NCBI GenBank assembly: GCA_964016885.1
Contig: OZ024743.1
Coordinates: 148,304,001 to 148,368,000 of the forward strand
DNA: 64,000 bases
Source: Eledone cirrhosa
Lineage: Eukaryota
Reading direction: 5' to 3'
Both the position numbers and the translations under genes were made by a program. The notes beneath the pieces were generated by a model, which was not told where the DNA came from, searched no databases, and worked only from the letters and a program-made list of their open reading frames with translations. Shown here in pieces: positions 5,608 to 63,234 of this stretch; the first letter of the stretch is position 1, and each line of letters opens with the position of its first letter.

Positions 5608-5760
5608 TGTGAAGTATTATCGTAGGAAGGGTAAAGGAAAGGCGAGTGCCCTATGTATGCTACAGAGCTATTTAATTATGTAATAAACAACATAAGACAG
5701 TTATTTCATCCTTTGGTAAATGGAATAATTGTCTTATGTTGTTTATTACACAATTAAATA
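5608..5760. mobile_element. Short PLE-end remnant: tail + inverted repeat in (TA)n
   Basis: Arms 5669-5709 and 5720-5760 end flush with (TA)n. One arm holds the 3' half of a hammerhead (GAAAtaactgTC). Tail motif at 5644-5668. Confidence 0.6.
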
Positions 5761-5943
5761 TATATATATATATATATATATATATAAATTGTCCAGTATA
5801 CAGCAGCTGTGGTTCGATTCCCACTGACATTTCCATCCCATTTTTGTTTCATATTTAGCTTGTATATAAATGTATTATTTAAGTTCAATTTTATCACAAA
5901 AGTCTTAACAATTATATATATATTGGGATATGTATTTAATTAA

Positions 5944-6190
5944 AGTCCTAGTAAGTAGCAAGGAATACATGACCCTGATCCTCTTCGGGAAATGGCCCTG
6001 CTAAGTGTGTAGGAAAATGGTGGGTAGGAATTTCATTCTCTACCCAAATGCAAACTATGGGTACAAAAGAGATGTAGTAGGATCTCAGGTAGACACAAAG
6101 AACATAGGTTTTAAAAGTGGTCCATTCACAGGAGCAGTGAACAGCAAGCACTCACAGGAAACAAACCTTGTCAATTTCTTATACCCTCTA
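5944..6190 (+). mobile_element. RTE LINE fragment (PHD-like Cys region)
   Basis: Translates to GKWPC*VCRKMVGRN..CKLWVQKRCSRISG, typical of the Cys-rich insert in invertebrate RTE ORFs. Confidence 0.7.
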
Positions 6191-6449
6191 TAGCCCCTCA
6201 TACCTTAACACTTCACCATTCACCAGGTAATTACTCCAGTCTAGACCTACCACTCCTATCCCCACTCTACATACACCCACCTCTTTCCACTCTAAGTCAT
6301 CCTCATTGACCTATTTCTCTAATCTCCTCCCTACATATATACACCCCCACTCCCTTTCCACTTCTGACTCCCACCACCCAACAAACTCATGTATACAAGC
6401 ATTGAAAGATGAACACTCTTCCCCAATGCTGGTGAAATTGACTAAAGGC

Positions 6450-6910
6450 ACTCAGCCAACCCTGTAAAGTGGTCATGCTGGTGACACCACAAAAGCCACA
6501 GGTTCCGCATGTAAGATGCTCATGTTGGTTCCATGACAAAAGAGTACCCCCCCCCCCCCTGTAAGGCAACATGATAAAAAAGCACTTAGAGCCCTCACAA
6601 CAAAATTCCCGTCCCACACTGTAAAGTGACCATTTTGGTCCTGTGATGAAAAGCACTTAGTCCACACTGTAAATTGGTTGTCTTGGATCTACAACAAAAG
6701 TGCCCAGTCCACACTGTAATGTGGTCATTTTGGAGCCACAATAAAAAGCTCCTAGTCCACACTGTAAAGTGGTTGTGTTGGTGACATGAAAAAAGTGCCC
6801 AGTCCACACTCTAAAATGGTCATGTTGTTGTCAAGACAAAACCCAATCAGTCCACACTGTAAAGTGGTCGTTTTGGTGCCACAATAAAAGCATCCAGTCC
6901 CCACAGTAAC
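6450..6910 (+). repeat. ~41-bp minisatellite derived from SINE central unit
   Basis: About 11 diverged units of cactgtaaagtggtc..gtg..ac..aaaagcacccagtcca; the same unit occurs twice inside SINE 39419-39779. Confidence 0.8.
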
Positions 6911-59436: not shown

Positions 59437-61092
59437 TATATATATATATATATATATATATATATATATATATATATATATATATATATATATATATATA
59501 TATATATATATATATATATATATATATATATATATAGAAAAGATGAATATAAAATGAAAGTGCTTTTTAAAAAAAAAGGAATTTATTAGGTATTGACATA
59601 TGTTTATGTAACAGACGGAATACCTATGTATCGCTGCTTGCGTAATCATATAATGTTAGCAAGTATTCGATAGCAAATGTATAACCAGTTGTCACTTCTT
59701 CAGAGATTTTGGATAAATTGGCTAAAATCAGAAAAATTGAAGTATTTATATTAGTTGTAATAGAGGAAGAAGAGTATATGACAGTAGTATATGACAGATG
59801 GTAATTCAATTTACTGCTAAACAAGTATATGAAGGGTTTCTAATGAGAATACAATGAGTAAATGGTTTATTTTATCTAAATAAGAATTTTGGGGAGTGCC
59901 TATTTTAATCTATACTTGACCAATTGAACAATGGACAGGGCTGGTCATTTGGTGTAGTAGTATTAATTATAAAGTGTCAATTGAGGAAGGGGGAGATTTC
60001 GACTGCTACTGAATAACATCAATGCTAGTAGCCAGCTGGTATATGCATTAGGGAATTGAATTAAGAAATCAGAAATCTCATTTTATCTATAGCAGTTTAT
60101 ATTAAATGGTAAATAATAGAAGAATTGATAGCATTAAGACTAGTAGAATGTTAATATGTAGTTTGACAATCAAACGGAGATGGAGACAGGCGTTCAATCC
60201 TGGTAGTATTTGTAATATGAAAATGTAGATTTTAAGCGATGGATACAGTATAACGATCGCTCTATTCTGTTATTTAATAAAATGTTTTGGATTTCATAAT
60301 ACAAAATAATTCCATATTACATAATTTACAAAATTCCTGTCCGTGGGATTATATGGAGGGGCAGCTGCTATTATATCCCATTTTAGGTTAAATTGTTGGT
60401 TATTTTCACGCAGCTGCCAAGCCTTGTCCGCGAGTGTTGTTACATAACGCTGGTTTTCATGTTTTATCGAGTAACGATGTCTATAAAGGCGTGATTTGAA
60501 GGAGGTGGCTGTAGATCCCACATAGTACCACTTCTGTCTATCCGATTCGATAGTACATTTGTATATGATGTTGCGTTCAAGACACTGATTGTTCAACGGA
60601 CACATTCCTGATTGGACACAGTTACAGTTATAATTTTGCGTTGTTGTATTGGCATGGATGGGTTGCTTAGGTAGGACAGGATGTTGTTTGTTGTTTTGTG
60701 ATGTTATAGCTAATGTTTTACGTGTATTGTTATGTGTTGGAAGGCGTTTATACAACCGTTTTGCGTTAAGCTTTTTTATATGTTGTTCAATATTAGGGGC
60801 GGTTGAATATGAAAGTCGAATAGTGTTAGGGTTTAAGATTTTATTATATTTATGTGATGTTGGAAAGTGTTTTTTAACTAATTGAAATGATTGTGAGGGT
60901 AAATTGGTGTTAATAGAGTTGTTATAGACCTGGTTGTACCAAATATACTCTTTACATCGCCTTCTGTTTGGTGGTGTGCGACTATTATTGTGTCTAACAG
61001 CGTACGTGTAGGTTTGCTCAACGAGTATAAATTATATTCCGGAGAAAATGTAGAAAAGATGAATATATAATGAAAGTGCTTTTTTTAAAAAA

Positions 61093-61961
61093 CACCCAAA
61101 ATATATCCCATAGGAGTAGAAATAGCACAGAATCACCACCATACATACACTACCGCAATAGACACAATAATAGTCGCACACCACCAAACAGAAGGCGATG
61201 TAAAGAGTATATTTGGTACAACCAGGTCTATAACAACTCTATTAACACCAATCTACCCTCACAATCATTTCAATTAGTTAAAAAACACTTTCCAACATCA
61301 CATAAATATAATAAAATCTTAAACCCTAACACTATTCGACTTTCATATTCAACCGCCCCTAATATTGAACAACATATAAAAAAGCTTAGCGCAAAACGGT
61401 TGTATAAACGCCTTCCAACACATAACAATACACGTAAAACATTAGCTATAACATCACAAAACAACAAACAACATCCTGTCCTACCTAAGCAACCCATCCA
61501 TGCCAATACAACAACGCAAAATTATAACTGTAACTGTGTCCAATCAGGAATGTGTCCGTTGAACAATCAGTGTCTTGAACGCAACATCATATACAAATGT
61601 ACTATCGAATCGGATAGACAGAAGTGGTACTATGTGGGATCTACAGCCACCTCCTTCAAATCACGCGTTTATAGACATCGTTACTCGATAAAACATGAAA
61701 ACCAGCGTTATATAACAACACTCGCGGACAAGGCTTGGCAGCTGCGTGAAAATAACCAACAATTTAACCTAAAATGGGATATAATAGCAGCTGCCCCTCC
61801 ATATAATCCCACGGACAGGAATTTTGTAAATTATGTAATATGGAATTATTTTGTATTATGAAATCCAAAACATTTTATTAAATAACAGAATAGAGCGATC
61901 GTTATACTGTAACCATCGCTTAAAATCTACATTTTCATATTACAAATACTACCAGGATTGA
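61093..61961 (+). pseudogene. PLE Zn finger + GIY-YIG C-terminal fragment (mirror copy 60201-60995 on -)
   Basis: WYNQVY, HKYNKILN..IRLSYS, CNC..CPLNNQC, IIYKC..YVGST; after frameshifts, CKLC..E and LNNRIE..CNH. Confidence 0.9.
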
Positions 61962-62451
61962 ACGCCTGTCTCCATCTCCGTTTGATTGTCAAACTACATA
62001 TTAACATTCTACTAGTCTTAATTCTATCAATTCTTCTATTATTTACCATTTAATATAAACTGCTATAGATAAAATGAGATTTCTGATTTCTTAATTCAAT
62101 TCCCTAATGCATATACCAGCTGGCTACTAGCATTGATGTTATTCAGTAGCAGTCGAAATCTCCCCCTTCCTCAATTGACACTTTATAATTAATACTACTA
62201 CACCAAATGACCAGCCCTGTCCATTGTTCAATTGGTCAAGTATAGATTAAAATAGGCACTCCCAAAAATTCTTATTTAGATAAAATAAACCATTTACTCA
62301 TTGTATTCTCATTAGAAACCCTTCATATACTTGTTTAGCAGTAAATTGAATTACCATCTGTCATATACTACTGTCATATACTCTTCTTCCTCTATTACAA
62401 CTAATATAAATACTTCAATTTTTCTGACTTTATCCAATTTATCCAAAATCT

Positions 62452-62560
62452 CTGAAGAAGTGACAACTGGTTATACATTTGCTATCGAATACTTGCTAAC
62501 ATTATATGATTACGCAAGCAGCGATACATAGGTATTCCGTCTGTTACAGAAACATATGTC
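62452..62560 (+). ncRNA. Hammerhead-like motif with extended stem II
   Basis: CTGAAGA-a-GTGACA..~75 nt..TGTTAC-a-GAA-ACATATGT-C, then AATAAA at 62568; stem I is poor. Confidence 0.5.
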
Positions 62561-63234
62561 AATACCTAATAAATTCCTTTTTTTTAAAAAAGCACTTTCA
62601 TTTTATATTCATCTTTTCTACATTTTCTTCGGAATATAATTTATACTCGTTGAGCAAACCTACACGTACGCTGTTCATCTCTAACGTAACGATATATTAT
62701 CACTACATTATTGATAACCTGAAATTTTATATATATATATATATATATATATATATATATATATATATATATATATAAAGTTATCTGTCTCTAAAACATA
62801 GACATCTCAATGAAAGGATAAGAAATAAATCATCTACTGAGAGAAGGAATTCAACTGTGTGTAAACACATACACACAAACACATATATATTAAAACGCTG
62901 ATTAATATGTAAAACTATTAATCAAATTGTCTAACAAATTCATAGGTCAATAAGAGTGCTAAAAACAGCCACTGTTAGAACCTACAGTAAGCTCTACTAA
63001 TTTAAAATTAAACACTTTCATTAGGAGCAGTAACACAATAATCCAAAGGTAAAACATTGTCATAGAAATAGAGAAAATTTGGAGTTTTACCATCTTTATG
63101 TAAGTTCTTTTACTTGCTATCCAATTTTTCTTTGGCAATGCATCTATGAATACATACATACACACACACATAATATAAATATATATATATATATATATAT
63201 ATATATATATATATATATATATATATATATATAT

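Follow-up and report, generated by a model that had tools for sequence, protein, structure and literature searches.

A duplicated leader hairpin near the insertion ends of Hydra-clade Penelope-like elements, a probable guide to internal reverse transcription starts

Introduction

In long interspersed elements (LINEs), a 3' stem-loop near the priming site, as in L2/CR1 elements and in the 3' untranslated region (UTR) of R2, confers template choice on the reverse transcriptase (RT); these stem-loops lie 5' of the priming site and get copied. For Penelope-like elements (PLEs), the choice of start point, and the presence of a tail in only some copies, have been open questions since the tail was described. 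Here we consider a stretch of 64,000 nucleotides from Eledone cirrhosa (GenBank assembly GCA_964016885.1, contig OZ024743.1, positions 148,304,001 to 148,368,000 of the forward strand), hereafter the window, which is AT-rich animal DNA with many scattered (TA)n runs and two coding PLEs, elements A and B. An initial annotation, made from the letters of the window alone, had proposed that seven PLE-type ends share a stem, RCTC with GAGY, around unrelated loops, and that this is a cis RNA element recognised by the RT/endonuclease that positions priming. We find that PLEs of the Hydra clade carry two bulged hairpins in their leaders and that copies end 2-7 nt ahead of one or the other; we consider it likely (probability roughly 0.6) that each hairpin sets an internal start of the RT.

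The closest described elements are the Hydra-clade PLEs of PMC8557442 (this and the other papers are cited for the parts of their text and supplements covered here). The elements studied here resemble them in having an RT followed by an endonuclease, CxCx5C and CxxC/CxH motifs, a hammerhead or hammerhead-like motif, (TA)n ends, inverted or tandem copies and an optional tail, although the tails in the window are ~60-130 nt long, against 30-40 nt. We found no mention of a leader hairpin in the part of that paper's text covered, although four of its six new consensi contain the motif. The PLE Poseidon PAc offers the nearest functional parallel: in vitro, reverse transcription begins at two internal sites, which bound the tail, and depends on RNA 3' of them, so the tail has been linked to two internal starts without the naming of a conserved signal (PMC11167929). 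The PAc starts lie in an AC-rich stem-loop within the open reading frame (ORF), and no repeated conserved motif is reported in the portion covered, whereas Hydra-clade elements have the signal twice, within the 5' leader and 3' of each end; the comparison with PAc is by the text rather than by its stem-loop figures S1B and S2C. The strings GAGCAC and GAGTGC are absent from three text supplements (7,325 characters) of the same paper. The minimal hammerheads of PLEs (PMC4209133) are likewise a small conserved RNA motif at PLE ends, ~50 nt upstream of the first hairpin, but the hairpin has no catalytic core and its position fits the insertion ends, not the self-cleavage site.

In the part of the PLE literature searched, which included PMC8557442, PMC11167929, PMC4209133, PMC3846280 and bioRxiv 10.64898/2026.07.22.740005, with Repbase reports and subscription papers outside its scope, we found no description of the motif. 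The element clade is already known, and what appears to be new is a duplicated hairpin, resembling a template-recognition signal, downstream of the end that it marks.

Motif frequency and leader layout

To look beyond the window, 93 loci were picked on protein similarity alone, 77 from metagenomes and 16 from a genome collection; the protein alignment holds 52 sequences, namely element A and 51 of 120 listed homologs. A strict pattern, GCTC-N5-45-GAGCNCT, matches 54 times in 40 upstream regions, with two matches in 22 of them, one in 10 and none in eight. The same pattern has no antisense match, a mean of 0.1 matches per shuffled set and one match in 148 kb of ORF. There are 37 matches in 45 downstream regions. 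By eye, variant stems are present in five of the eight negative regions, and in the other three the leader is not intact.

Chance matching in AT-rich repeats might be offered as an explanation, as a relaxed descriptor makes 16 background matches in the window and no model score there is significant, and single window sites such as site B (Table 1) may indeed be of this kind. At the level of the clade, however, chance is refuted by the excess of strict matches in blind-selected leaders, by 104 matches of a clade covariance model in the loci, including copies outside its seed, and by the motif's presence in published Hydra consensi, and we give it almost no credence. Those consensi (PMC8557442 File S7) are Amil-2, Ajap-1 (where the motif occurs twice before the ATG), Ajap-2 and, in a variant form, Crog. 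In the same supplement as covered, consensus Amil-1 stops a few bases ahead of the position that the first hairpin occupies in its close relative L068, and the Obim Hydra consensus has no clear copy of the motif.

The order of features is constant: ORF, 3' UTR, hammerhead, the two hairpins SL1 and SL2, then the ATG. SL1 lies a median of 48 nt, and SL2 108 nt, after the hammerhead cleavage site; the spacing between them is ~63 nt (range 57-83 nt in 23 leaders), and SL2 mostly ends ~10-40 nt ahead of the ATG. The initial annotation had placed the motif inside the terminus, but each leader has two copies shortly before the ATG, each lying 3' of the terminus that it marks. The hammerhead regions of three loci closely match published Hydra ones (L008 with Penelope-1_NV, L068 with Hydra-1_Amil and L090 with Hydra-2_Amil).

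Five hammerheads of another PLE type, found in the same loci, have no motif ahead of their (TA)n end. This type has GAAAC(GCG/CGG/ATG)T hammerheads (L004 136, L029 319, L086 2061, L090 3775, L081 7320), and in four of the five the string TGTGCAA stands directly ahead of (TA)n, a possible end signal of that other clade. Loci L078-L093 are 16 contigs from bacterial genome bins that carry animal PLEs and are probably host contamination of those bins. No relative was found in viral contigs.

Hairpin structure and covariation

The consensus is GCTC-Y-(stem, loop)-R-TH-GAGC-ACTNT, that is, four closing pairs, a fifth Y-R pair, a 2-nt bulge on the 3' side (TT in 39 copies, TC in 10, TA in five), a variable inner stem and a 3' box. 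When the two halves were located by sequence only, we obtained 69 instances, 60 after removal of near-duplicates and 54 with an unambiguous 5' half. Among these 54, pair 5 is C-G in 31, U-A in 19, U.G in three and G-C in one, a concordance reached by none of 20,000 permutations. Pair 1 is G-C in 49, A.C in three, U-A in one and G.A in one, and pair 3 has two A-U swaps. The inner pairs are Watson-Crick in 80 of 110 cases, against 30 in shuffles.

A structure-free MAFFT alignment of 29 copies with mid-length loops, one row of it misaligned, has 95.6% of its cells paired and a covariation score of 0.49, against 0.14 when shuffled and at most 0.16 when slid. A model-fitted set of 98 copies agrees, but is biased towards the structure. 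On a tree of 47 proteins (median 48% identity), pair 5 of SL1 changes six times on each side and seven times as a pair, indicating concerted, repeated changes; these counts are approximate, as the SL1/SL2 labels are wrong in a few loci (e.g. L074, L027, L087). The covariation first reported, ACTC/GAGT against GCTC/GAGC, is seen in the window, where four sites read ACTC/GAGT, but this swap occurs in none of the 54 outside copies, where the best covariation is at pairs 5-7. The swap at pair 1 may be one lineage-specific event.

A reading of the motif as a GAGYRCTC dimer or palindrome was rejected because the fourth position of the box varies (C 34, T 11, G 5, A 4; n = 54). The near-palindromy of GAGYRCTC can nevertheless misorient a match, as in one antisense false match in L009, and the orientation of the window sites was therefore set by the inverted arms rather than by the motif. 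Rfam gave no matches at E<=1 in eight motif-bearing loci.

Insertion ends and the optional tail

Ends were located within families, by setting a copy that stops in (TA)n against one that reads through. Of 17 (TA)n junctions, 16 fall 2-7 nt 5' of a motif and one falls at 13 nt. Positions -2 to -7 make up 5.5% of leader positions and 27% of TAT/ATA sites, and on the latter basis P is ~1e-8. A fixed distance to the (TA)n junction, for which the initial annotation suggested a test, is present in the outside loci. Tail-less ends stop ahead of SL1 and tailed ends (L009 twice, L080, L089) ahead of SL2, which suggests, together with an SL1-SL2 spacing similar in order to the window tail lengths, that the optional tail is one hairpin repeat unit. 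Seven ends without a (TA)n run also lie at -2 to -6 (L003, L006, L007, L010, L012, L025, L082), hence the run does not set the offset. The offset is constant across motif lengths of 21-51 nt, as expected if the spacing is measured from the folded stem.

Public reads and contigs were used for family A, that of element A, only. There the largest among the listed loose ends is (TA)n behind 56585, 2 nt ahead of the motif, with 2,349 reads in X22, 139 contigs in X1 and one contig in X4. Piles of read ends at 56161, 56355 and 56659 fall on AATT and were taken as library cut sites.

It has also to be asked whether the repeats are promoter elements, with a TATA box and an initiator-like CACT, or translation or start-codon elements, the ends clustering through microhomology of the TA patch to (TA)n targets. 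The TA dinucleotide does peak 6-8 nt ahead of the stem, the position of SL2 shortly before the ATG in most leaders would suit such a role, and a putative TATA box with a TCACT initiator has been noted in the pseudo-long terminal repeat (pLTR) of a rotifer PLE (PMC3846280). Compensatory pairs, however, speak against a double-stranded DNA box, and the distance from TATA to CACT varies with a loop of 3-41 nt. As to microhomology, the interval used by 16 of 17 ends holds just 27% of the leader TAT/ATA sites, and the ends without a (TA)n run keep the same offset. We regard the promoter or translation explanation as quite improbable.

In several loci (L009, L041, L081, L086, L089, L090) and in the window (59433-59536, 56672-56712), a single (TA)n run often separates two PLE 3' ends that belong to different families and point towards one another. 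This looks as though later insertions pile into the runs at existing ends.

Proposed mechanism

Under the reading that we favor, a tandem or read-through transcript would carry the ORF, 3' UTR, hammerhead, SL1 and SL2, and the RT-endonuclease protein would bind a hairpin, recognising the UH bulge, the 3' ACUNU box and the conserved stem that closes it. The endonuclease would then nick AT-rich DNA, and the nicked end would anneal to a short UA-rich stretch that lies 2-8 nt 5' of the stem, with extension away from the hairpin. A start at SL1 would give a tail-less end, while a start at SL2 would copy SL1 and the spacer as the optional tail. As with the LINE stem-loops, a short structure lies near the priming site, but the Hydra hairpin is outside the copied part and is present in two copies. 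The outside loci support a cis element such as the initial annotation proposed; its folding as RNA and its recognition by the protein are what we infer. Overall we consider that annotation's observation partly confirmed and its interpretation partly supported.

A clade-wide, duplicated, covarying hairpin from which both end positions can be predicted to ~5 nt, in families that share ~48% protein identity, gives precise mutants for testing the origin of the tail and, for an enzyme that is a sister of telomerase, a minimal cis element of ~40 nt. Annotators gain a rule by which the 5' leader, the orientation and the real ends can be recognised in Hydra elements and in their non-coding fragments.

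Several observations weigh against this reading. The four closing pairs are nearly invariant, and hence offer little covariation support for their own pairing. Full independence cannot be claimed for the junctions, since they represent ~12 families and several derive from a single host assembly; the reference windows, moreover, were built around motifs (-150/+60). Six break points without TA lie elsewhere, at -12, -13, -77, -80, -90 and -98, and may be truncations or reflect subfamily divergence. In the window, there are the 16 further matches of the relaxed descriptor noted above, and the clade covariance model ranks two of the seven sites (E 0.27 and 2.1) and misses the other five, the window copies being divergent; the model is blind to the long-loop and ACTC variants found there. 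The tails at sites G and B reach 67-72 nt past the motif, against 28-37 nt in the outside loci, and no SL2 is visible in the window because there is no intact leader there. Two window palindromes with tails (56706-57458 and 59278-59436) have no motif; with one (TA)n end and one extension each, they are probably PLE ends of other clades.

A further difficulty is that there is no strand signal: inner G.U pairs number five against four A.C, pair 1 has three A.C and pair 5 three U.G, and the folding energies of both strands are equal. Since the strands fold equally, the data are compatible with folding of single-stranded DNA, whether complementary DNA or an extruded strand, in which case the GIY-YIG endonuclease might set the ends by cutting a longer transposition intermediate in the TA patch, 2-7 nt away from the stem. 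Such cutting predicts the identical fixed offset, and the folding is strand-neutral; the tail has been ascribed to 'EN-mediated resolution' (PMC8557442), and in D. virilis it was needed for endonuclease recognition of plasmids, as recounted in PMC11167929. A cut would also explain two copies (in L089 and at window 8090) that start at the motif directly behind (TA)n, with foreign DNA upstream, but in the loci such a 5' start is seen in only one of 92 motif copies. The DNA hairpins are weak here (mean ~-2 kcal/mol), and in the single PLE tested in vitro the tail boundaries are RT starts on RNA (PMC11167929). On balance we find cutting of a DNA hairpin, the chief alternative to internal starts, rather unlikely.

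[quoted passage not shown] We would give this only a small chance; if true, the terminal (TA)n, and much genomic (TA)n, would be made by the element and not merely targeted by it. Near 6720 on the minus strand of L081, a 14-nt TA run stands at an insertion into a tandem repeat, where three empty copies (L092 2554, 3065, 3435) have only TATATTA, and at L090 + 5799 there is a 40-nt TA run that another copy of the flank does not have. These two cases hint that TA repeats may be added at or after insertion.

Motif sites in the window

All seven strings of the initial annotation are present in the window (Table 1), five on the minus strand and two (56588 and 62643) on the plus strand. Six of the seven sites border an inverted duplicate that passes directly into (TA)n at its opposite end, the exception being 8045-8089. 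At those sites one arm leads to (TA)n and the other to the motif, then 33-72 nt more (none at 13676) and then (TA)n; the extension beyond the arm is the optional PLE tail. The motif had been placed within ~25 nt of the terminus, which does not hold for the outer (TA)n junction, 33-72 nt away at six sites and absent at 13676; it is instead the inner, tail-less terminus after which the motif starts, at ~0-12 nt.

Read with the consensus of independent loci, six of the seven sites close with 4 bp and bear a 2-nt T[T/C/A] bulge, and five of these six have a standard fifth pair (5668, 8089, 13705, 13937, 56588); the relaxed descriptor finds all five. At site E the closing stem is absent from the minimum free energy fold. 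The earlier parse of site B as ATACTC-gtt-GAGC was mistaken, in that ATACTC is part of the inner stem and the true 5' strand is at ~62626-62630 (TCTCC in the internal copy near 61041); its first pair is mismatched, its 3' box deviates, and it folds no better than shuffles (z 0.0 and 0.6). The sites are without likeness outside the motif, apart from the two copies of element B and a 10-21 nt stretch around GAGTGCTC(C/A)A common to three sites.

Eight asymmetric palindromes, with one end in (TA)n and the other extended, were chosen by eye, and in five of them the descriptor lies <=24 nt from the arm end, element A being scored separately from the other four positives; the background at random positions is 0.6-1.9%. 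Rfam gave no match at the motif sites among the 150 of 236 window matches listed. The window evidence alone is suggestive, and the proof of the motif comes from the outside loci, which give far better support than the window does to a cis element that is conserved, covaries and keeps a fixed distance to the PLE ends.

Table 1. PLE-related features of the window (positions within the 64,000-nt stretch)
Feature	Positions	Strand	Remarks
Mini inverted PLE end pair	5609..5760	.	tail-less end to (TA)n 5758-5786; tail 5609-5668 to TA 5598-5608
Site D, hairpin SL1	5643..5668	-	GCTC/GGGC with U.G wobble, U-A fifth pair, UA bulge; starts 0 nt after arm end of palindrome 5669-5760
Site E, hairpin	8045..8089	-	ACTC/GAGT, C-G fifth pair, UC bulge; opens lone tail 8000-8090 between two (TA)n runs
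Site F, hairpin	13677..13705	-	ACTC/GAGT, U-A fifth pair, UU bulge; without (TA)n behind; 13.5 bits, E 0.27
Old inverted PLE end pair	13718..13847	.	79% self-complementary; tail-less end to TA 13850-13865
Inverted PLE end pair	13866..14241	.	tail 13866-13940; tail-less end 14237, 7 nt short of motif; hammerhead-like GAAA-palindrome half per arm
Site C, hairpin	13908..13937	-	ACTC/GAGT, U-A fifth pair, UA bulge, perfect 5-bp inner stem; fold z -2.1
Old inverted PLE end pair (72%)	36512..37088	.	pair 36641-37088; tail ~130 nt
Site G, hairpin	36584..36641	-	ACTC/GAGT, fifth pair A.G mismatch, UU bulge, 41-nt insert; fold z -2.9
Family A solo 3' fragment	52368..52437	+	short, tail-less; stops 2 nt short of expected motif start
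Element A	53080..56671	.	5'-truncated Hydra-type PLE, inverted 3' duplicate; tail-less end 53080, tailed end 56671
Element A ORF remnant	54077..55683	-	RT then C-terminal endonuclease; frameshift near 55552; hidden Markov model (HMM) score 628
Element A hammerhead-like motif	56499..56571	+	apparent Hydra-type layout by eye against PMC8557442 File S2 (part covered); core CAGAAGA, not CUGANGA
Site A, hairpin SL1	56588..56638	+	GCTC/GAGC, U-A fifth pair, UC bulge; tail-less copies stop 2 nt ahead
Element B	59537..62727	.	inverted Hydra-type PLE 3' halves; internal tail copy 60996-61092; outer tail reaches 62727
Element B ORF remnants	60294-61031 and 61031-61861	- and +	
Site B, degenerate motif	62626..62660	+	first pair mismatched, 3' box AAACC; fails descriptor

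Elements A and B and their clade

Both coding elements have an RT followed by a C-terminal GIY-YIG-type endonuclease, as judged from HMM and tblastn matches and from motifs. On the profile, element A aligns to positions 177-701 in order and the remnants of element B to 463-661. Neither ORF has a Pfam match, and the domain names therefore rest on the motifs of PMC8557442 section 11, from which we also take the definition of the Hydra clade (a CxCx5C linker, CxxC and CxH, a C-terminal endonuclease and (TA)n ends). The linker is CNCVQSGMC in element B and CNCRNRVDF in element A, where the last C reads as F, against CNCRNKxxC in the homolog consensus. The C-terminus of element A, ...CDFCAAE...LNKKSE...CKH, has CxxC and CxH around a conserved E and N, without CCHH; element B is frameshifted ahead of this part. 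Both elements are 5'-truncated ahead of the RWK/DKT region, in which homologs show RMRWKA and ADKT. (TA)n adjoins both ends of each element. The linker, the CxxC/CxH of element A, the endonuclease position and the (TA)n ends all appear to fit the Hydra clade.

The initial annotation had suggested a comparison with Naiad consensus tails. Assignment of A and B to Naiad, a group characterised by an N-terminal endonuclease, a CxC linker ahead of the RT and the lack of a canonical hammerhead, was rejected, as the endonuclease here is C-terminal. In the Naiad consensus part of the PMC8557442 supplement, motif 8-mers are present, without a matching hairpin context in the passages compared. No coding remnant was found by tblastn or HMM near the non-coding sites C, D, E, F and G, and these are consequently assigned to the clade by end structure and motif only.

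Canonical hammerheads are common in the related outside loci; element B keeps only the GAAA-palindrome half, and Rfam gave no hammerhead among the listed window matches. In all three window copies of family A (56499-56571 plus, 53090-53160 minus, 52368-52437 plus), CAGAAG(A/G) replaces CUGANGA while stems I-III are largely intact. This hammerhead-like core may be a fixed non-canonical or inactive variant in a high-copy family.

Other features of the window

A GC-rich, frameshifted non-long-terminal-repeat retrotransposon with endonuclease- and RT-like reading frames occupies 552-4002 on the plus strand, and short remnants of other LINE-type RT reading frames lie at 58489-58878 and 30554-30988, both on the minus strand. 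Minisatellites are present at 6614-6909 (47 nt), 17309-18395 (441 nt), 33860-34344 (262 nt) and 35466-35827 (91 nt); the 262-nt unit holds a tRNA-like stretch (34223-34294 minus, 43.6 bits) and is perhaps a short interspersed element (SINE). At 36095-36130 there is a short GC hairpin with a terminal CTAGT, which we take to be Helitron-like. An end similar to this hairpin adjoins the family A TA patch at 56584 in 811 reads of X22.

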